DNA of 64,000 nucleotides from Rickettsiales bacterium (GCA_965262395.1 OZ253531.1:528838-592837); one strand, 5' to 3'. Shown: positions 652-20,478, counted from the first letter of the stretch. Translations and numbers: made by a program. Notes: generated by a model not told the origin, from the sequence alone.

Positions 652-2475
652 TTATTGTCCTGGAGTATTGGTAGAATGAGAGACCTCATCCTCTGGTTTT
701 GAGAGTGGAGAGACCTCTGGGCTTTTTGGTGGTGTATCTGCTTCTTCTAGCTTTCCCTTGAGAGGGTTAACACCATATTCGCCTCTTTCTATTTCTTCTT
801 TTTTTGCTGCTAACGCCGCTTCTTTTTCTTCCTCGCTCATTGTTGCGAGCGATTTGATTTCTAATGTTATTGCAGGCTCTGGCTCAGTAATGCCCTTCAT
901 TACTTGACTCATTAGATTTTCATCATCATCTTTCTTTTTTATCTTTTCTTCCAATGTTTCTCTTGTTTGTCGAATAATTGTTTTTATCACATGGGTAGAT
1001 ACTTTATATTTCTTAGCCATCTTTTGAATATTTTTTGAAAATAGATAATCATCTGCCTTTATAAAGAGTTTTTCTATCGTACCTGGAGCAGGGGTTGTTT
1101 TTGATTCTGTTTTTGCACCTTTTCTGGTTCTAATTTTTTCACCTAATAGGACTACAGGTTTTATTACTGCTTTCAGGGGGGATGTGAAGGGCGCTGTTAG
1201 TATATAAAGGAATTTATTGCCAGAACTCATATCTGAAAATTTATCATAGCCAATTAGAGCTCCCGCTATACCTGTCGTTTTTCTCTGTGATTCTTCTAGT
1301 TCATCTACTTTAGCCTTAAGTGTTTCATCAATTTTACTGAAGTCCTCTGAATCCACATGTAACACTTTTTTGAAAGACTCTTCTTTAAATCTATTTTCTT
1401 TGCGATAACTGGCATTATTAGGATAATTAGCTCCATATATCATTTCACTAGATTCTTTTGCGCCAACACTAAATATTAATCTTACAGGAAATAATAATGA
1501 TGCGACAACTTTCTCGCCGGTTGATAGTTTGCTGAATTTTTCATATCCTAGAATGGAATCTAATGCATGATCTTTAAATGATTTATGAGGTTTTTCTGGT
1601 AAGATGAGTAGTTGTGCATGTTCCGTGCTTTTGAAAGTAGACTCTTTGTTATAAAATTTTTCTTTATCTGCAGTATCTTTTATGCTCCTATGTATCCATA
1701 TTTTGGACGGATCTACGTGGCATTTTTTTTCTGTGACTTCTATATCTTCTGCTTCTTGTTTAGTTGGATTGACTATAATTAATTTATGATCGTTTTTGTT
1801 CAAGGCGGTTTGTATATTTTTTTCTTCTATTGCTGTTATTTTTCCGATGAAATTCATAGATTCCACTGTTAGTTTATCATGATGATCATTGTGGCCGTCT
1901 TGACTTAGCAGGCAAACTCTTAACCCACCTACAGATGATTTTTCGTTAATATGACTGAGGAATTGCTGTTTGCTGGGTGATATTGTTGTCGAAGAATCTG
2001 TTAGATGAGTTACCTTGTTATTTTTATCAAGTGGTAAGCAATATATTAATGGCGTACCTTCATTTGTAATAACTTTAATGGGTAAGAGGTTTGGGTATGC
2101 TACACCTTTGAACATTATGCCAGTTCGCTCCTTATTTGTGTACAGCACTTTAGATAAACTATCCTTTTTTACCTTTACCGGCTTTTTCTCTGGCGTTGGT
2201 TCTGGCGTTGGTTCTGGCGTTGGTTCTGGCGTTGGTTCTGGCGTTGGTTCTGGTTTTGGTTCTGGTTTTGGCGTTGGTTCTGGTTCTGGCGTTGGTTCTG
2301 GTTCTGGTTCTGGCATTGGTTTTAGGCCTAGGTTCAGATCTAGTTTTGATTTTAGGTCTAACTTTGGATCTAGTTTTGATTTTAGGTCTAACTCTGATTT
2401 TAGGTCTAACTCTGATTTTAGGTCTAACCTTGGTTTATCTTTGCTATTAGGTACTGTCTGGGGTTCTGTAGGCAT
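652..2475 (-). CDS. tandem-repeat protein (N-terminal DLKS(E/K)L and (T)PEP repeats), candidate surface or secreted protein
   Basis: 607-aa ORF. N-terminus reads DLKSELDLKSELDLKSKLD... then PEPEPEPTPEPEPTPKPEPKPEPTPEPTPEPTPEPTPEPTPE. The body holds two copies of a (I/L)(L/I)GY(E/D)KFSxxSxGxK module. The C-terminus is acidic and Ser/Pro-rich. Confidence 0.7.
   Translation of the reverse strand: MPTEPQTVPNSKDKPRLDLKSELDLKSELDLKSKLDPKLDLKSKLDLNLGLKPMPEPEPEPTPEPEPTPKPEPKPEPTPEPTPEPTPEPTPEPTPEKKPVKVKKDSLSKVLYTNKERTGIMFKGVAYPNLLPIKVITNEGTPLIYCLPLDKNNKVTHLTDSSTTISPSKQQFLSHINEKSSVGGLRVCLLSQDGHNDHHDKLTVESMNFIGKITAIEEKNIQTALNKNDHKLIIVNPTKQEAEDIEVTEKKCHVDPSKIWIHRSIKDTADKEKFYNKESTFKSTEHAQLLILPEKPHKSFKDHALDSILGYEKFSKLSTGEKVVASLLFPVRLIFSVGAKESSEMIYGANYPNNASYRKENRFKEESFKKVLHVDSEDFSKIDETLKAKVDELEESQRKTTGIAGALIGYDKFSDMSSGNKFLYILTAPFTSPLKAVIKPVVLLGEKIRTRKGAKTESKTTPAPGTIEKLFIKADDYLFSKNIQKMAKKYKVSTHVIKTIIRQTRETLEEKIKKKDDDENLMSQVMKGITEPEPAITLEIKSLATMSEEEKEAALAAKKEEIERGEYGVNPLKGKLEEADTPPKSPEVSPLSKPEDEVSHSTNTPGQ
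2192..2445. repeat. intragenic short tandem repeats (6/12-bp ggcgttggttct series, then 30-bp and 18-bp units) encoding the PEP and DLKS repeats
   Basis: Periodicity read directly. It also produces long spurious ORFs on the opposite strand (2015..2494, 2196..2450). Confidence 0.85.
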
Positions 2476-2663
2476 AGCATTAGTGTACGATTGAGTATCA
2501 CAATCTCAAATTGATACTCCTATTTGCTTAAACATTGATTAATCGTCATCGATCATTATTAAATTCTAGTAATCATTATACTGTGTGGGTTGACGATAAT
2601 TCAGACATATGATATCCTTAAGACAAGTATATATTATATCTTTAATGATTGAAGAGGGCAATA

Positions 2664-4178
2664 ATGGCTGAACCAAAAACAAAACAAAAAACAAAAAATG
2701 GAATTTTACCACAACTTTTAAATAATCCAGGTCTATCTTTCGACAAGAATAAGGATAAGAAAGCAAACCAAGCTGCTAATTTATCAATTTTAACCACATT
2801 ATTTGACAGGGCGAAGCATTCTAAAAAATCATCCTTGATTAAGAAAATGCATCACGCTTCTGCGATAATATCGTTGATATTGATAACAGTAATGGTTGTT
2901 AGTGGTTTTTTAAAATTTGTTGCTAAGATGCAGCATTCTAAATCATCGTTCAGAGCTTTCTTTGCAAAAGATGCAGTATCTCAAGCTTTAGAAGTTATTG
3001 AGTTCTTATTAGCAGCAATAGTTTTCATAATTTCGCTTGTGACATTTTTTACAGCTATTTACCAATCAGTTGTCGATAAAAAAATAGATGACCATGATTT
3101 TGCTATGAGACTTATGAAATCTTCACTTTCTCTTGAAGAGATGAAATATGCAGCAGGCATGTCTGATAAAGAGTCTGATCAAGCAAAGATAATGAAGAAT
3201 TATAAAGAGAATACTCCTTGTGATGTTGCTGCAGTCAAAGCTGCTTGTGAAGAAATTGCCAATAATATTAAAGCTACAGCAGATAAAGGCGAGGCACTTA
3301 AAAAGATTAATGATCATATTAGAGCACGGAATATGCATTATTATGTTTTGTTGAAGGAAGCAACTAGATCTAAAAATAGGAGTCGCATAACATCTCTTGC
3401 TTTTGAAGCATTCGAAATCTTATACTCGACCCTTACAATTGCTGCTGAAGCTATAGGAGTTTATTATGCTTTTGTTGCTTTCAAGCCGAAGAATATTGCC
3501 CTAGGTATGGGTATATCGTCTTTGATATCCACATTTGCTTATTTGATGTTCTTTGTTTACAAATGGTATAGTGTGGTTTCTTCGATTGAAGGTATGTCAG
3601 AGGGTACTCGTAAAAAAAGTAAAGCTCACACTACTGTTAGTATATTAGTGACTACTATTGGTACTACACTGGTATCTATAAGCGTATTGCTTAATATACT
3701 TAGAGTTTTAGATGCAGCTAAAATTATTATGATTGATAAAAATTTAAGCAATACATTGGCTATTGTTAGATTTATATCATTGTTTACAACTATATTCCTT
3801 GGGTTATTTTCACAAATAGTACTTCGTATTGTATGGAAAGGAGTGTTGTCTGAGAAAGATCTTGCTATTCAAAAGGCAAAAAATGATCTTGATACTGAGA
3901 GCTGTGATGCTGTTTCTAGAGTGGATAGTCATATGGGATTACTTGATGATGGCAGTCCTACTACTAGTAAGACTGTACCGGTTCTTGTGAATAATATCGA
4001 TCCAAACACTCAGGTCGTTGTTGATCTATCGATGAGTGGTGATATAGTAAGAGCAATAAGTATTGCTCTGCCTACTACTAATATCTTTGTTGATAGTGCT
4101 ACTACTACGAACTTAGAGGTTAATATTGGGGATCTTCAAACTGATTTTGAAAGCCAAGGCATTGCTACTGCTTGCTAG
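2664..4178 (+). CDS. hypothetical multi-pass membrane protein (ORF opens at TTG 2649; ATG 2664 is preceded by gaagaggg)
   Basis: Several long hydrophobic segments (IISLILITVMVVSGFL, LLAAIVFIISLVTFFTAIY, LISTFAYLMFFVY, ILVTTIGTTLVSISVLLNIL, LFTTIFLGLFSQIVL). A strong terminator follows. Confidence 0.7.
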   Translation: MAEPKTKQKTKNGILPQLLNNPGLSFDKNKDKKANQAANLSILTTLFDRAKHSKKSSLIKKMHHASAIISLILITVMVVSGFLKFVAKMQHSKSSFRAFFAKDAVSQALEVIEFLLAAIVFIISLVTFFTAIYQSVVDKKIDDHDFAMRLMKSSLSLEEMKYAAGMSDKESDQAKIMKNYKENTPCDVAAVKAACEEIANNIKATADKGEALKKINDHIRARNMHYYVLLKEATRSKNRSRITSLAFEAFEILYSTLTIAAEAIGVYYAFVAFKPKNIALGMGISSLISTFAYLMFFVYKWYSVVSSIEGMSEGTRKKSKAHTTVSILVTTIGTTLVSISVLLNILRVLDAAKIIMIDKNLSNTLAIVRFISLFTTIFLGLFSQIVLRIVWKGVLSEKDLAIQKAKNDLDTESCDAVSRVDSHMGLLDDGSPTTSKTVPVLVNNIDPNTQVVVDLSMSGDIVRAISIALPTTNIFVDSATTTNLEVNIGDLQTDFESQGIATAC

Positions 4179-5029: not shown

Positions 5030-5680
5030 GTGGGCTTTTGTTGTATGGATGAGTATAATAAGCAAGTTTGGATAGTGACTTTTGCTGATTTGCTATCCTT
5101 AATGCTTACTTTTTTCATTTTATTATTCTCTTTTTCAGAATTGAATGAGAAAGATTGGTATAGCGTGGTGAGTAATACCAAATCTGAATTTGAGATAATC
5201 AAAAAATCTTCTAGTAACGCTAGTACTATAGAGGGAAGATATGGTATGGATCTGGGATATCTTGAAGCTGTGTTGAATAATAAATTTGTTAATGAATATG
5301 GTTATGTTCAGGTGAAAAATGAGGGTCATAGACTTATAGTATCTTTTCCTGGCGAGGTATTTAGATCAGAAAAGCAATTATATGATAATAAAGTTGATTC
5401 GGTGATGCACGTTATTGCCGATCTTGTTTCACAAATGACTAATAGTATTTATGTAATCAGTTACATAGATTCAGATCAGTCGCAGCTTGATCAGGAATGG
5501 GAAAATGTTCTTATGAATGCATTTGAAATATCCCAAGATATCAAAAAGCTTGGTTATGTAGAGGATATAAATATATTTGCAGGATCTTCTAATAGCAATG
5601 ATCCTAAAACAGGAATAGATTTAGTTATTAATGAGATATCAGATGATATACCTAATATGAACGAGGACGAAGGGTTGTAA
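5030..5680 (+). CDS. MotB/OmpA-like protein (MotB-type TM helix with conserved Asp, degenerate OmpA-like C-terminal domain)
   Basis: WIVTFADLLSLMLTFFILLF resembles the MotB WK(I/V)AYADFMTAMMAFFLV segment. RLIVSFPGEVFRSEKQLYDNKVDSVMHVIADLVSQMTNSIYVISYIDSD then WENVLMNAFEISQDIKKLGY...IFAGSS follows the OmpA_C layout, but the usual GHTD and RA residues are altered. Confidence 0.6.
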   Translation: MGFCCMDEYNKQVWIVTFADLLSLMLTFFILLFSFSELNEKDWYSVVSNTKSEFEIIKKSSSNASTIEGRYGMDLGYLEAVLNNKFVNEYGYVQVKNEGHRLIVSFPGEVFRSEKQLYDNKVDSVMHVIADLVSQMTNSIYVISYIDSDQSQLDQEWENVLMNAFEISQDIKKLGYVEDINIFAGSSNSNDPKTGIDLVINEISDDIPNMNEDEGL

Positions 5681-8457
5681 TGATTAGATTTATAATATTC
5701 ATCATATTTATATATTGCTCTTCCGATTATTGTAGTGCTTCAGAGGATAGCTATAGTATAGATAGCAATTCTTCAGGTGGGATTACTATTACCAAAGATG
5801 ATTTAACTGAAGATACGCCAGTTATTTCAGCTGAAGGGCAGAAAAAGTTGTTATTGGAAAAGAAAGAACAAGAAGCTTTGGCAAAGCTCAACGATAAAGA
5901 AAAAGCTATTATAAAAATGAAGAAATATAATAGTCAATTCTGGTTAAAATTTGATGATGTGAATGCAGTGAAGGCAGGAGTTTTCAAAAGAGAAGATGTA
6001 TTATGGATAGTATTTAATACGAAAAATACAGAAGATAATCTTGAAAAAAATGAACTTAGCCCACTTATTTCCGAACAGCAACACGATAAATATAAGATCA
6101 TACAAGTAGAGATTCCTGAGGGAGTATTTGCAGATCTGCAAATACTCCGTAATATGGTTGTTGTTAAATTTGTACCAAAAGAAGTTATACATAGTTATTA
6201 TAAGCGACCCAAGATTATTGAAGATAAATCTGAGGAGGAGGAAGATGATGATGATGTTGATAATGAGGTCGTTTTTATTGAAAGTATATCAAACCAGGAT
6301 CTTATTAAGGTTAATGATAGCGATATTGGTGATGAGTTGTGGTTGATACTGGATAATATTTCAGGCAGAGCATTCACTAAGACACATAAATATATTGATT
6401 TTCATATTCTACCAAGTTCTCTAGGCTTAGTAATCAAGCCGTTATCAAATGAATTGGAGATTCGTGATATAGCAGATAATACTGGTGTGGAGATTGCAAC
6501 TACAGAAGTATTTGACACAAAGGATAAAAATAAAGAGGCTGCAGAAAATCAGAAGGATGAAGCCAAAAAACTTATTTATGATATTGATTATTCACATCCA
6601 TTGTACAGATTTTCTGTCTGGAGTGGCAAAAAAAATTATAGCGAAAGCATTATAATGTTACGTAAAAATTTGCTTAAGGTGCATCCATATAAGCGAAGGA
6701 ATATTAGAATTAAGATTGCAGAATTATACCTGAGTCATGGCTTATATCAAGATGCACTAGGATATTTAGATTATATTAGATCAGGTGATAGGAAGGTTAT
6801 TAGCAGCGTTAGATATAGGTTGTTATATGCAGCAGCTTTGTACTTTGGTCGTAATTATTCACAGGCAAAGGATCTTTTTGATACCCTTGATGAAGAAGAA
6901 CTATCGGATGATCATAAATTAGAGCTGCAATTTTGGAAGGATGCCATTGATATTAAAATGGGTGATGATCAAAAAACATTGAAATATATAATTGGTTCTG
7001 AAAAATTCCTGAAAGAATATAATATGTTCCGTGAAGAATTTGCATTCATGGCTTTCGAACAAGCAATCAATAATGATCTTATAGACATAGCAAATAAGAT
7101 GAATAGCATAATTAGTGCCATGAAAACTCATAATGTAAATAGATTGCTATATAATAGAGCGATATTGCTGGAGAAAAAACAGAAATATAAAGATGCATTA
7201 AAGATTTATACCCTGTTATCAAAAAAGAGTGATGATAGAAAATATAGATCACTAGCTGTTTATCGTAAAACCAAATATCTGTATAGCATTCAAAAAGTTG
7301 ATAGAGTGGTAGCACTGAAACAATTGCTAGATATTAAATTTGTTTGGAGTTCTCCAGAGTTTGAGGTGCCTCTTTTGAAAGATATAGGTGATTTATATAT
7401 TGAAGAGAAAGAGTATTACAAGGGTATGTTGTCATATAAGGAGATGATAAAAAAGTATCCAGGTAATAAGTATATATTTGAAATTACCAAGAAGATGGGT
7501 GAATTATTTATAAAATTATTGATAGATGATAAAGATGACACTTTGTTGGATGATTATGGTGCAGCTCTAGTTTTTTATGAATTCAAAGAATTAATGCCCG
7601 TTGGAAGTATAGGTGTTAAGATAACCTTGAACTTTATAGATAGATTATTAGATCTTGATTTGGTTGATCAGGCAGAAAAATTACTAGAACATCTGGTTAA
7701 TTTTCGATTGAAGGATAAGCAACGTCAATTACAGCGTTTGAAGCTATCTGCTATTAAGATAAACAATCATAAATATAAAGCAGTGATTGATTTATTGAAT
7801 AAAGATACTGATTTTGATTTGCTTAGGGGAAGAGAGGTTAGGGAACGACGATACTTATTAACTGACGCATTGATACTTGAAGAAAAATATGAAGAGGCTT
7901 CAGAGGTTATAGGCAGCCTGAGTACAGTACGTGGTACAGATCTGAGAGGTGAGATATTCTGGAGATCAAAGGAATGGGATCAATTCATGACTCTTGCTGA
8001 AGGGGTATTAGAGTTCAGAAGTGATCCTAAGGCGCCCCTAACAGAGCGAGAGAAAATATATGTAATAAGATTGGCCTTGGCTTATGCATCCAAGGGGCAG
8101 CATGAGAAGATAAAGTCTCTTGAAGAAGCTTTTTCTACTTCTTTCCCAGAAGATAGTAAATATAGGAAGTCCTTGGTAGTATTTACAGAAATAACAGATG
8201 AGCTTACCTCTGAAGATTTGAATAAATCAGTAAATATAGACCGAATTAATGAGATCATAGAGGCTCATAAAGAGGATATTGTAGATGACTTTTCTAAAAT
8301 CAGTAAGAGTGAAGAAGATCAACTAAAGAAAGTAAAAGAGGAAAAGAGAACTCTACAGGAAGAAGAAGATAATAATGAAGCTAATGCAGAAAAGGAAGAA
8401 GATAATGAGAATGTGGAGAATGCAGCAGAAGATGAGGTCAAAGAAGAGGTGAAATAA
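5680..8457 (+). CDS. large exported TPR-like repeat protein (925 aa) with an acidic C-terminus
   Basis: Its ATG overlaps the upstream stop (TAATG). N-terminal signal-like MIRFIIFIIFIYCSSDYCSA. The central part has many Y/L/A helical-hairpin motifs (AELYLSHGLYQDALGYLDYI, AAALYFGRNYSQAKDLF, LLEKKQKYKDALKIYTLL, DLYIEEKEYYKGMLSYKEMIKKYP). E/D/N-rich tail. Confidence 0.7.
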   Translation: MIRFIIFIIFIYCSSDYCSASEDSYSIDSNSSGGITITKDDLTEDTPVISAEGQKKLLLEKKEQEALAKLNDKEKAIIKMKKYNSQFWLKFDDVNAVKAGVFKREDVLWIVFNTKNTEDNLEKNELSPLISEQQHDKYKIIQVEIPEGVFADLQILRNMVVVKFVPKEVIHSYYKRPKIIEDKSEEEEDDDDVDNEVVFIESISNQDLIKVNDSDIGDELWLILDNISGRAFTKTHKYIDFHILPSSLGLVIKPLSNELEIRDIADNTGVEIATTEVFDTKDKNKEAAENQKDEAKKLIYDIDYSHPLYRFSVWSGKKNYSESIIMLRKNLLKVHPYKRRNIRIKIAELYLSHGLYQDALGYLDYIRSGDRKVISSVRYRLLYAAALYFGRNYSQAKDLFDTLDEEELSDDHKLELQFWKDAIDIKMGDDQKTLKYIIGSEKFLKEYNMFREEFAFMAFEQAINNDLIDIANKMNSIISAMKTHNVNRLLYNRAILLEKKQKYKDALKIYTLLSKKSDDRKYRSLAVYRKTKYLYSIQKVDRVVALKQLLDIKFVWSSPEFEVPLLKDIGDLYIEEKEYYKGMLSYKEMIKKYPGNKYIFEITKKMGELFIKLLIDDKDDTLLDDYGAALVFYEFKELMPVGSIGVKITLNFIDRLLDLDLVDQAEKLLEHLVNFRLKDKQRQLQRLKLSAIKINNHKYKAVIDLLNKDTDFDLLRGREVRERRYLLTDALILEEKYEEASEVIGSLSTVRGTDLRGEIFWRSKEWDQFMTLAEGVLEFRSDPKAPLTEREKIYVIRLALAYASKGQHEKIKSLEEAFSTSFPEDSKYRKSLVVFTEITDELTSEDLNKSVNIDRINEIIEAHKEDIVDDFSKISKSEEDQLKKVKEEKRTLQEEEDNNEANAEKEEDNENVENAAEDEVKEEVK

Positions 8458-16600: not shown

Positions 16601-16884
16601 TAGATACTATATATAGTATGAATCAATGAAATAAAGATAGATGCTTGATTAAATATAGTAATCATACAATATATATTGTATAGATGCTTCATCTGGTATG
16701 TAGGTATCGTTTTATTTTAACCAATGAGGTAAGTGTTATTTTGATGAAATAATTAAGCCACCAAGTTAGCGACAACTAACATGGGTGACCAAAAACGTAC
16801 TGATCTAATATTAGAAAAACCATGAACGTTCGCAATCGTAGTTTATCTAATATGGATATATATTATGCAAATAAGAACAAGAGT

Positions 16885-17058
16885 AATAGAATGGATGAAG
16901 TTTATAATAAGATCCATGATGAAAGGGATGAATTTTGTAATAAAATCTATGATAAAAGGGATAAATTTCCTAATAGAATGGATGAAATTTATAATAAGAT
17001 CCATGATGAAAGGGATGAATTTTGTAATAGAATCTATAATAAAACCCACAATCAAATG
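16885..17058. repeat. 2 x 87-bp tandem repeat
   Basis: aatagaatggatgaa(g/a)tttataataagatccatgatgaaagggatgaattttgtaata starts at 16885 and 16972. Three overlapping ORFs (two on +, one on -) are open across it. Confidence 0.7.
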
Positions 17059-17117
17059 GATAAAAAATAATCCAGAATTTATAAGTAGACTGCGCATAAT
17101 ACTGTCAAATCTAGGAG

Positions 17118-17690
17118 ATCGATGGCCGATTATGCAGCAATTATAATGTGAGCCGCTAGGAAGTTGCTGACCGATTATGCAGCCGATACTGAAAATTATA
17201 ATGTTAGTGTTGGGAAGTTGATGACCAATTATGCAGCAATTATAATGTGAGCCGCTAGGAGATGCTGACCGGATTATGCAGCCGATACTGAAAATTATAA
17301 TGTTAGTGTTGGGAGGTTGATGACCAATTATGCAGCCGATACTGAAAATTATAATGTTAGTGTTGGGAGGTTGATGACCGGATTATGCAGCCGATAATAG
17401 AATTTTATGGGAGGTTGCTGACCGATTATGCAGCCGATACTGAAAATTATAATGTTAGTGTTGGGAAGTTGATGACCGATTATGCAGCCGATACTGAAAA
17501 TTATAATGTTAGTGTTGGGAAGTTGCTGACCGGATTATGCAGCAGATAATAGAATTTATGATTTTAGTGTTGGGAGTTGCTGACCGGATTATGCAGCCGA
17601 TAATAGAATTTATGATTTTAGTGTTGGGAGGTTGATGACCAATTATGCAGCCGATACTGAAAATTATAATGTTAGTGTTGGGAAATTGAT
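17118..17690. repeat. mosaic tandem repeat, about 10 units of 45-57 bp in three interleaved variants
   Basis: All units share the core gac(c/cg)(a/g)attatgcagc. The variants continue with cgatactgaaaattataatgttagtgttggga(a/g)gttgat, with aattataatgtgagccgctagga, or with cgataatagaatttat. Confidence 0.85.
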
Positions 17691-17830
17691 GGATAATTAT
17701 CAGGTTAATGTTATCACTTTATTGAAAGTTATTAAATGGATATGACCGGTAGATCTCCTGCAGTATAAGACAATGTTAATGTTTTTATTATAAAGTTCAA
17801 GCAATGTATTAATCCTTATATGTTTGTATT

Positions 17831-18280
17831 ATGAAGTTTAGGTGGTTGCCTATTGCACTATTTATGTTGCTAGGCTTTAATCATGAGTTATATGCTGAAT
17901 GCAGTTGTAACTCTGTCGAAAAAAGTGTTGAAGAGGCGGTGCGAGGTAGTAACCTGATTGTAAGTGGAAGAGTAGTCAATATAGTACATGCAAATAATGT
18001 TGATTATGTGGTGAAGCTACATATCTATAACACCTGGCTAGCTACAGACGATATAGTAGAAGAAAATGGCCAACAATATGTTCATTTGATCTCTACTTTA
18101 AATAAAGAAGAATGTGGTTCTCAGATGAAACTTGGACATAATTATCTCATATATTCTAATTATGTTAATGGACAATTAGTTGTTAGTAAGTGTAGCAATT
18201 CTAAGAAGTTGGAAAAAGTTCCTAGTAGTGAGTTTATTGCTTTAGATGATATAGTAGGTCAGGACGAAGAAGAAGAATAA
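17831..18280 (+). CDS. secreted TIMP/NTR-like OB-fold protein (149 aa)
   Basis: Signal peptide MKFRWLPIALFMLLGFNHELYA, then ECSC (Cys24, Cys26) ...EEAVRGSNLIVSGRVVNIV..., and near the C-terminus YLIYSNYVNGQLVVSKCS. This is the pattern of TIMP N-terminal/netrin-like modules (CxC, beta strands, ...C). Confidence 0.55.
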   Translation: MKFRWLPIALFMLLGFNHELYAECSCNSVEKSVEEAVRGSNLIVSGRVVNIVHANNVDYVVKLHIYNTWLATDDIVEENGQQYVHLISTLNKEECGSQMKLGHNYLIYSNYVNGQLVVSKCSNSKKLEKVPSSEFIALDDIVGQDEEEE

Positions 18281-18650
18281 TCAAATTCATAAACAATTGA
18301 TTGTTAGTAAGTGTAGCAATTCTAAGAAATTAGAAAAAGTTCCTAGTAGTGAGTTTATTGCTTTAGATGATATAGTAGGTCAGGACGAAGAAGAAGAATA
18401 ATCAAATTCATAAACAATTGATTGTTAGTAAGTGTAGCAATTCTAAGAAGTTGGAAAAAGTTCCTAGTAGTGAGTTTATTGCTTTAGATGATATAGTAGG
18501 TCAGGACGAAGAAGAAGAATAAACAGGTTCATAAACAATTGATTGTTAGTAAATGCAGTAATTCTAAGAAGTTGGAAAAAGTTCCTAGTAGTGAGTTTAT
18601 TGCTTTAGATGATATAGTAGGTCAGGACGAAGAAGAATAATAAACAGGTT
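18172..18650 (+). repeat. 4 x 121-bp tandem repeat; the first unit is the authentic 3' end (36 codons plus stop) of CDS 17831..18280
   Basis: tgttagtaagtgtagcaattctaagaa starts at 18181, 18302, 18423 and 18544. Every copy ends gaagaagaa(gaa)taa. Confidence 0.9.
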
Positions 18651-18656
18651 CATGCA

Positions 18657-19388
18657 TTGAAGATTAACAATGATATAGGTATCTTATTAGGTTATCGCAG
18701 ATATGGTGAAAGTTTCTTCATATTATCAATTCTGACGAAAGATCATGGTTTATATAAAGGCTTATTTAGGCCTAGTAAGAAACATAATGTTTTATTGCAA
18801 ATTGGTAATGTTTTATCTGTGAAGTGGCAAGCTAGATTGCAAGATAGCTTGGGTAGGTTCAGTTGTGAATTAGTTAGTAGTTATTTTGATTATTGTTTTG
18901 ATGATAATCTGAAGCTTCTTGTTTTAAAGTCATTCTCGTCTTTATTATTGTCATGTCTTCCAGAGCGAGAAATTCATAAAAATATTTACAAGTCGTGCAT
19001 GAAATTCCTATTGTCATTAAAAGGGCAGGGATGGCAATCAAAATACATATATTTTGAGCTGCAGTTATTATCTGATCTTGGTTATGGCTTAACGATTGAC
19101 AAATGTGCAGTGAGCGGCAGTAAAAATGTGGATGATCTTTCATATATTTCTCCAAAAACTGGTTGTGCTGTAGTGCAAGAGGTGGGTATTCAGTATAAGG
19201 ATCGCTTAATTAATTATCCTGCAGCTTTCAGATCGGTTGTTGTAGATGATGATGTATGCCTATCGCACGTTGATGTTGTAGAGGCATTATGTGTTACGGG
19301 TTTCTTTTTAGAGAAGAATGTTTGGTGTTCCTCTAAGAGGCGAATACCAGAGGATCGGAGTATTCTTATACAAAAATTAAATAAATAA
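18657..19388 (+). CDS. recO: DNA repair protein RecO
   Basis: 243 aa with the typical RecO N-terminal OB region (GILLGYRRYGESFFILSILTKDHGLYKGLFR) and the expected length. TTG start 7 nt after the last repeat unit. Confidence 0.75.
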   Translation: MKINNDIGILLGYRRYGESFFILSILTKDHGLYKGLFRPSKKHNVLLQIGNVLSVKWQARLQDSLGRFSCELVSSYFDYCFDDNLKLLVLKSFSSLLLSCLPEREIHKNIYKSCMKFLLSLKGQGWQSKYIYFELQLLSDLGYGLTIDKCAVSGSKNVDDLSYISPKTGCAVVQEVGIQYKDRLINYPAAFRSVVVDDDVCLSHVDVVEALCVTGFFLEKNVWCSSKRRIPEDRSILIQKLNK

Positions 19389-19590: not shown

Positions 19591-20478
19591 ATGTATGAAG
19601 CTGTTACCTCCATGCAGCCAGGTGATGCAATTATCGCTGTATGCCAAGATAATTATAAGAAAATAATATTTATTGAGGGATTTGATGAAAATATAGAAAG
19701 ATTGTTGCACTATAATGAAGATGACATGATAGGTCGCAACGTTAATATTATATTTGGCAGCAAGGTTACAGAGGCCATTGAGAGTTATTTAGAATATAAT
19801 GACTCTACTCATAGTCTTGATGTCGTACTTAATAAAATTAGAGATTTTAGTTTAATTAATCTTGATGGAGAGCATGTTGATGTACACGCTAAGACGCACA
19901 ATGTGGCTACTAGTGACCGAGGGTTGCATTTTGAAATAGTTATAAGGCCCATTACTATTGAAGAACGATTAGATGATTTCAAAGAACATGTGCCTGTGGC
20001 CAAATCTAATCAAGTTCATGAAGATCTTGGTATTTTAAATGAAGAGGCTGTAAGAAAAGAGTTAAAAGTCATGATAGATTTTTCTGATCATAATATGGCA
20101 GATATGGTTATTGGATTGATTTCTATTGAACATGTCAAGATTTTTTCTAATGTTAAGAAGCTTTTAATTCCAATCATAGAAGTACTAGAAAAAAAATTGG
20201 AAAAACGAGACATTATTGGGTATTATGGACATGGTGAGATATTATTTGCAATAATAGATTGTAATGCAAATAAGGCAATCAATGTCATTGATTTGCTTCA
20301 TCGTAGTATTAATAATAGGTTGGCTAATTTTAGCTCTTCTTTGGGTGAAAGGGTTTCTTCTTCAATAAGTTATATGAATTTTTCTGGCTTGAGTTTGGAA
20401 GAAACATTTGCAAAATTGGAAAACGGAACATCAGAGGCCAAATCTTTGGGTGGTAATCAGATATGCAATCGCAGTTAG
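19591..20478 (+). CDS. PAS-like sensor plus degenerate GGDEF domain protein (GGDEF replaced by GHGEI)
   Basis: N-terminal DMIGRNVNIIFG is PAS-like. The C-terminal layout HEDLGILNEEAVRKEL / VIGLISIEHVKIFSN / RDIIGYYGHGEILFAIIDC...AINVIDLLHRSI parallels D.LTGL.NRR / IDIDHFK.IND / D.vaRyGGDEFavll...A...aeri. Confidence 0.55.
   Translation: MYEAVTSMQPGDAIIAVCQDNYKKIIFIEGFDENIERLLHYNEDDMIGRNVNIIFGSKVTEAIESYLEYNDSTHSLDVVLNKIRDFSLINLDGEHVDVHAKTHNVATSDRGLHFEIVIRPITIEERLDDFKEHVPVAKSNQVHEDLGILNEEAVRKELKVMIDFSDHNMADMVIGLISIEHVKIFSNVKKLLIPIIEVLEKKLEKRDIIGYYGHGEILFAIIDCNANKAINVIDLLHRSINNRLANFSSSLGERVSSSISYMNFSGLSLEETFAKLENGTSEAKSLGGNQICNRS

Follow-up and report, generated by a model that had tools for sequence, protein, structure and literature searches.

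The 64,000-nucleotide stretch of Rickettsiales DNA analysed in the current study (the window) carries a gene for a small exported protein that is very probably a homologue of the TIMPs, with the same fold. The window protein belongs, as a divergent member, to a very large 'mini-TIMP' family of prokaryotes, and it is new as a prokaryotic, two-disulfide, N-terminally extended and recO-linked variant of a known fold family. Its warhead is probably altered. The interpretation to which slightly better than even weight is given is that of a Sec-exported, two-disulfide homologue of the TIMP N-domain (N-TIMP) which binds its partner through the ridge, without canonical zinc chelation. Inhibition of a metalloprotease by any means is put forward tentatively as a candidate function, and inhibition by canonical N-terminal chelation is an unlikely one.

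The gene occupies positions 17831..18280 (plus strand, stop included) and encodes 149 aa, as indicated by the ORF list, the orthologues and the structural model; this is exactly the ORF named in an earlier, sequence-only reading of the window. It is a single-copy gene in its own genome (1.83 Mb, 34.7% G+C). The protein reads MKFRWLPIALFMLLGFNHELYA up to the predicted cleavage site and continues ECSCNSVEKSVEEAVRGSNLIVSGRVVNIV...GHNYLIYSNYVNGQLVVSKCSNSKKLE... thereafter. Residues 1-22 (17831..17896, plus strand) form the predicted signal peptide, with positive charges at K2 and R4, a hydrophobic core from W5 to F16 and a c-region that ends in L-Y-A. The cleavage site was inferred by reading the -3/-1 rule off the sequence (L at -3, A at -1). 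Signal peptidase I has a single canonical site under this rule, after A22 (L-Y-A/E, with a slash for the cut here and below), and therefore Glu23 would be left ahead of Cys24. The mature protein is predicted to begin E23-C24-S25-C26 (17897..17908, plus strand), which places the Cys-x-Cys one residue inside the predicted N-terminus; C24 and C26 are aligned with Cys1 and Cys3 of TIMP-2. The sequence-only reading had proposed the signal peptide, the Cys-x-Cys and the single Glu before the Cys if cleavage follows L-Y-A, and on all three points, the last being rule-based, the present analysis agrees with it.

Four cysteines are present in all: C24, C26, C95 and C121. Numbered from Glu23 they fall at positions 2, 4, 73 and 99, close to positions 1, 3, 70 and 99 of TIMP-1. 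The Cys95 codon (18113..18115, plus strand; EECG) corresponds to TIMP Cys70/72 and the Cys121 codon (18191..18193, plus strand; SKCS) to TIMP Cys99/101. The sequence stops 28 residues past C121, and at its C-terminus the protein has only an acidic tail.

Used alone, the window protein gave no Pfam hit (best ZP-N at 0.071), including no match to PF00965 or PF01759, nothing in NCBIfam and nothing relevant in PDB by phmmer. A word-indexed homologue search returned only the window protein itself, and alignments used as query brought in 3-4 proteins. With a profile of eight Rickettsiales orthologues, the best PDB chain was TIMP-2 (E = 0.005), followed by agrin, and a 64-sequence family profile matched the TIMP-2 N-domain at E = 8.9e-8. 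The latter alignment begins with Cys1 on Cys1, sets C95 on C72 of TIMP-2 and C121 on C101, and includes WKG-like and CG..F...YL[IV] motifs as well as a helix after the last Cys. These profile matches to TIMP-2 carry the TIMP homology, which had been proposed from a motif resemblance, beyond chance, and at the level of sequence profiles homology to TIMPs is statistically supported. Among the 64 relatives, Pfam TIMP was matched by 20 (best 1.8e-10) and, weakly, NTR by six and NtA by three.

The predicted structure points in the same direction. A first AlphaFold2 model, built on a 4-sequence alignment, had a pLDDT of 68.5 (core 85-90), and its 50 best PDB matches were all NTR/TIMP-type domains, with NTR modules on top (meteorin NTR, agrin NtA, PCOLCE NTR, C3/C5 C345C and TIMP-1/-2/-3). 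A second model, built on a 65-sequence alignment, reached a pLDDT of 88.8 and a pTM of 0.78. When it was compared with PDB by Foldseek, ranks 1-9 were all TIMP-1, -2 or -3, with TM up to 0.72, and the C5 C345C, PCOLCE NTR and agrin NtA domains came after them. The best match was 2j0t_D, N-TIMP-1 complexed with MMP-1 (E = 2.2e-6, TM 0.70), while 3cki_B, N-TIMP-3 with TACE, gave a TM of 0.71. The TIMP/NTR-like fold suspected from the sequence is thus predicted with high confidence, and in the model the window protein is TIMP-like, with a five-stranded OB barrel and flanking helices as in N-TIMP.

The wider family was scanned by HMMER with a profile of the window protein and three named orthologues against 1.84 billion cluster representatives. 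This gave 3745 representatives at E <= 1e-3 and 113 at E <= 1e-10, with matches down to E = 1e-30, and nearly all were 125-200 aa long. All near relatives of the window protein were prokaryotic. In the 64-sequence alignment C24, C26, G46, C95, Y105 and C121 are invariant, G102 is also among the invariant columns, and the ridge-forming segments are the best-conserved parts of the family. The window protein has the signal peptide, the four conserved cysteines, the G46/G102/Y105 core and the size of the family, and it departs from near-invariant family residues at F44 (V), K70 (L, changing WKG to WLA), F99 (M) and CSRT (CSNS).

A degenerate DNA pattern for the CG[FY]xFxxGxxYL[VI]Y block was used to sample the family more widely, and members were found in Bacillota, Acidobacteriota, Myxococcota, Chloroflexota, Cyanobacteria, Planctomycetota, Bacteroidota, Patescibacteria and some archaea. 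Many Bacillota members have a C-terminal membrane anchor. Members of 380-540 aa, in which an N-terminal TIMP-like domain is followed by a long C-terminal extension, occur in Acidobacteriota and a 'delta proteobacterium' (loci L011, L022, L023, L025, L026, L030 and L045 among them). The Ureibacillus galli protein WP_191705728.1 is named 'Tissue inhibitor of metalloproteinase' in UniRef and 'hypothetical protein' at NCBI; the latter was the NCBI name of the family members seen, for which there is no NCBIfam model. A literature search for prokaryotic or bacterial TIMP homologues found no paper. The literature searched treats TIMPs and NTR modules only as animal extracellular-matrix proteins, and against that the prokaryotic family is surprising.

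About 300 distinct family sequences were aligned to the profile, and the disulfide pattern was inferred from the covariation of their cysteines. All four cysteines were present in 261 of the sequences. The second and fourth were lost jointly in four sequences (CxCx) and the first and third jointly in three (xCxC), one of which is the Rickettsiales orthologue L002; the cross-pattern of loss occurred in none of the about 300. The co-loss fits a pairing of C24 with C95 and of C26 with C121, which would equal C1-C70 and C3-C99 of TIMPs. Among the Rickettsiales orthologues C26 and C121 were retained in 8/8, and C24 and C95 were lost only together, in L002. The cysteines are thus conserved in orthologues, as the sequence-only reading requires, and the covariation is in line with a TIMP-like disulfide pattern.

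The residues around Cys1 bear on the mechanism. The N-terminus was readable in 247 family members; of these, 222 had A, S or G before Cys1, and 210 (85%) had a canonical AXA-type signal peptidase site immediately ahead of it. The middle residue of the Cys-x-Cys was Ser in 155 and Thr in 22 (72% of 247), as in TIMPs. A TIMP-like mechanism would lead one to expect a cleavage site so tightly tied to Cys1 in different phyla. The 25 exceptions to A, S or G were concentrated among the best matches to the window protein, which (HELYAE-C), like most of its clade, has no AXA/C site. Members of this recO-linked Rickettsiales clade carry 1-3 residues, and up to 8, before Cys1, and these extra residues are not conserved: the predicted starts are LYA/E-CSC in the window protein and A/V-CIC, A/DS-CVC, A/DV-CNC, A/SI-CNC, A/E-CVC, A/EICLNGR-CMC, A/TE-C and A/LKY-CQC elsewhere. 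Signal peptidase I does not accept Glu at -1, and Glu23 most likely stays ahead of Cys1. A free alpha-amino group on Cys1 at the mature N-terminus is, by the same rule, not predicted for the window protein.

TIMPs bind the catalytic zinc through the alpha-amino group of Cys1 (PMC9890683). According to PMC5410052, which cites Wingfield et al. 1999, MMP inhibition by TIMP-2 was abolished by one appended Ala, and PMC3003256 reports that N-TIMP-3 with an extra Ala or a modified N-terminus kept inhibition of ADAM17 and ADAMTS-4/-5. Because Glu23 is likely retained and Ala-extended TIMP-2 was inactive, canonical chelation is unlikely in the window protein; given the N-TIMP-3 result, it may still inhibit in some other way. 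The L002 orthologue, which has no C1-C70-type disulfide, and the unconserved residues before Cys1 likewise argue against conserved N-terminal zinc chelation.

A bacterial lipoprotein was also considered and rejected. The window protein reads L-Y-A-E-C and not the lipobox L-[AS]-[GA]-C; across the family, position -3 is A, V, S or T (Leu in only 6/247) and -2 is mostly Y, F or L. Moreover, Cys1 held in a disulfide could not be lipidated.

Candidate targets were sought in the genome of the window. It contained no Peptidase_M10 match and no ORF with the metzincin motif HExxHxxGxxH/D, and its HExxH proteins resemble the FtsH, RseP, M48 peptidase and ImmA types. Two DsbA-like genes are present, which makes periplasmic disulfide formation plausible. 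A Sec signal in a diderm bacterium leads to the periplasm. In the wider family, 144 flanking ORFs compared with Pfam revealed no recurrent partner or protease, and a metzincin gene was found in only 2/102 family loci. At one locus (L018, Leptolyngbyaceae cyanobacterium; 884-3129) a family member that starts AYS/CSC is immediately preceded, on the same strand, by a serralysin gene with Peptidase_M10, M10_C and RTX repeats. By analogy the two genes may form a protease-inhibitor pair.

From these data a mechanism can be proposed. DsbA-type periplasmic enzymes would form both disulfides after export, and these would brace the N-terminal Cys-Ser-Cys against the EECG and SKCS loops to make a ridge, the same one that TIMPs insert into the active-site cleft of metalloproteases. 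In the wider family, with AXA directly before Cys1, the free N-terminus would most likely cap the protease zinc in TIMP style. The recO-linked clade would have drifted away from this capping and would most likely bind its partner via the ridge, without alpha-amino zinc chelation. The partner may be a zinc protease able to accommodate the extension, or some other protein of the envelope, and the site of action would be the periplasm or the cell surface; the protein is not a proven host-directed effector. The exported inhibitor of host or bacterial metalloproteases suggested by the sequence-only reading is at most a candidate function, weakened by Glu23, by the genome without a metzincin of its own, by a Sec route that leads to the periplasm and not to the host, and by near relatives that are all prokaryotic and so speak against a host-derived mimic.

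The main rival for the clade is a binding module of TIMP/NTR fold for a non-protease envelope ligand, in which the Cys-x-Cys would be kept for stability alone. Most NTR-fold domains retrieved by Foldseek (agrin NtA, PCOLCE NTR, C345C) are not inhibitors, and such a module would be in keeping with the N-terminal extension of the clade, the loss of the C1 disulfide in L002, the genome without a metzincin and the lack of a conserved protease neighbour. However, the closest matches of the better model are TIMPs proper and not NTR modules, and the family-wide AXA/C-S/T-C signature is hard to explain by stability alone. This alternative is a possible one, with clearly less than an even chance.

A canonical TIMP-type inhibitor would need Cys24 as the true N-terminus, through a non-standard cut or later trimming of Glu23; its alpha-amino and carbonyl groups would then chelate the catalytic zinc of a metzincin, which might be an MMP or ADAM of the host, encountered once the protein has left the bacterium. 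The Cys-Ser-Cys start identical to that of TIMP-2, the TIMP-like spacing of the four cysteines, the strong conservation of the ridge segments, the position of Cys1 right after AXA in 85% of the family, the serralysin gene next to the family member in L018 and the reported activity of the extended N-TIMP-3 all speak for it. It is nevertheless improbable for the window protein, given the Glu that signal peptidase I refuses at -1, the variable extensions of the clade, the orthologue without the Cys1 disulfide, the genome with no endogenous metzincin and a Sec route that leads to the periplasm. A similarly low probability is given to a broader proposal, according to which the recO-linked clade would be a working inhibitor with a modified warhead that blocks ADAM/ADAMTS/MMP-type or other zinc proteases of an arthropod or vertebrate host after release, and the thousands of prokaryotic mini-TIMPs would be the ancestral stock of the animal TIMP/NTR module.

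The distribution of the gene bears on its reality and origin. A six-frame search of 40 relatives detected orthologues in 7/24 genomes of the same family, and no copy was detected in five genera that were represented by several genomes each (16 genomes). The relatives with names are Neoehrlichia mikurensis, 'Anaplasmataceae bacterium AB001_6' and Candidatus Xenolissoclinum. In all seven positive Anaplasmataceae relatives the gene immediately precedes recO in the same orientation and abuts or overlaps its start. In a genome from another family of the order (G025; locus L131, G025:C1:73500-80500, 3143-3916 and 5170-5967) the gene order is lepB-rnc-era-TIMPlike-recO. A pre-recO position shared by two families of the order is compatible with vertical descent and repeated losses. 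This high-G+C genome also carries a second, more degenerate TIMP-like copy 600 bp downstream, in which the first and third cysteines are missing (AHA/YQCPYEP..., ...AFYGYDF...).

For two congeneric orthologues of the sister lineage dN/dS was 0.11, which points to purifying selection on the orthologues. The ORF is a genuine gene, conserved and coding for an exported protein. That it arose by chance, or is a pseudogene in decay, within repeat-rich intergenic DNA might be suspected from its place between repeat arrays, from its duplicated 3' end and from the window protein being the most divergent member of its clade, but the intact frame, the signal peptide and all four cysteines, the orthologues in seven genomes, the dN/dS in the sister lineage and the confident structural model make this very unlikely. 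Recent capture of a host TIMP/NTR gene as molecular mimicry, to which the obligate intracellular type of the bacterium and a fold otherwise described from animals might point, was rejected as scarcely credible, since the nearest relatives are thousands of prokaryotic proteins (E down to 1e-30) with TIMPs only at profile level, the same pre-recO position is shared by several genera and by a second family of the order, and the protein has neither the third N-domain disulfide nor a TIMP C-domain.

The preferred reading, an exported two-disulfide N-TIMP homologue with a ridge and without canonical chelation, can be set against known systems. Like the animal TIMP N-domain (TIMP-1 to -4; MEROPS I35; PF00965; 2j0t_D, 3cki_B, 2tmp_A), the window protein is predicted to have an OB-barrel and helix fold, and it shares with TIMPs the Cys-Ser-Cys start, a similar cysteine spacing, the inferred C1-C70 and C3-C99 disulfides and secretion via a signal peptide. 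Unlike TIMPs, it has neither the third N-domain disulfide (C13-C124) nor the C-domain with its three further disulfides, it falls below every Pfam threshold, Glu23 is predicted before Cys1, and it is prokaryotic and predicted to be periplasmic. It resembles the prokaryotic TIMP-like family in the four invariant cysteines, G46, Y105, size and signal peptide, whereas the family majority has AXA/C, WKG and CSRT, the clade is extended by 1-3 residues and the window protein reads WLA and CSNS. NTR modules (PF01759; agrin NtA PF03146; PCOLCE, C3/C4/C5 C345C, meteorin) belong to the same fold class. They have six cysteines, sit inside or at the C-terminus of large animal proteins and are mostly non-inhibitory; the window protein, in contrast, stands alone, with four cysteines and the Cys-x-Cys beside the signal-peptide site.

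Serralysin genes adjoin periplasmic inhibitor genes in the pairs aprA-aprI and prtA-inh, and Inh/AprI are small exported serralysin inhibitors encoded beside the protease. Inh/AprI (MEROPS I38) and the potempin PotA of Tannerella (PMC9890683) are functional analogues, being small exported bacterial beta-barrels that block metzincins. Their genes adjoin a protease gene and are in this respect comparable to the TIMP-like gene of L018; unlike the window protein, they are unrelated in fold and sequence to TIMP-like proteins, and no protease gene is linked in the window.

The family reaches the reduced genomes of the obligate intracellular Anaplasmataceae, where it is kept at one pre-recO position. 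The clade amounts to a natural experiment on the TIMP mechanism, in which the scaffold and both ridge disulfides are kept and the free N-terminal Cys is not. If a clade protein still inhibits a protease, this would suggest a new binding mode; if not, the TIMP scaffold would have been re-used. The window protein is a small, easily expressed candidate for the first biochemistry of bacterial TIMP-like proteins.

The duplication of the gene tail noted in the sequence-only reading is real. Tandem Repeats Finder gave a period of 121 with 3.9 copies and 96% matches at 18172..18643, and together with the alignment of units and six-frame matches to residues 109-149 this defines an array of 4 x 121 bp at 18172..18655 (plus strand). 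Unit 1 comprises the last 36 codons of the gene and its stop (about 109 nt) plus 10-12 nt, and the four units have 96% column identity when aligned. Only unit 1 is in the frame of the gene; units 2-4, which separate the gene from recO, have a shifted frame (121 = 3n+1), and every unit has its own stop. The array is specific to the window genome, the relatives having no array and a gene that abuts or overlaps recO.

In the coding part of the units, 6/8 variable positions are third codon positions in the frame of the gene, and each of these six variants is synonymous (AAG/AAA, TGT/TGC, AGC/AGT, TTG/TTA). With uniform placement the chance of this count is roughly 2%. Such a bias is unexpected in out-of-frame copies with stops ahead of them, and the silent units may once have served as the coding tail, as unequal exchange between units would allow. 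Alternatively, the variants may have originated in a copy that was coding; the evidence for either is weak.

The TTG start of recO lies directly after the last array unit (18645-18660), and three extra 121-bp units part the gene from recO. A terminator-like site was looked for between the TIMP-like gene and recO and none was found, so that recO may be co-transcribed across the array. The recO gene (18657..19388, plus strand; Pfam RecO_N, RecO_C) is the conserved downstream neighbour and serves as a synteny anchor, not as a functional partner. The DNA around the TIMP-like gene is unusually repeat-rich, and upstream of it lie unrelated tandem arrays made of 54/152-bp mosaic units and of a 2 x 87-bp unit (17139-17691, 16884-17072). 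After recO follows a 295-aa ORF (19591-20478) with weak, sub-threshold Pfam matches to GGDEF (E = 0.0024) and PAS_2.
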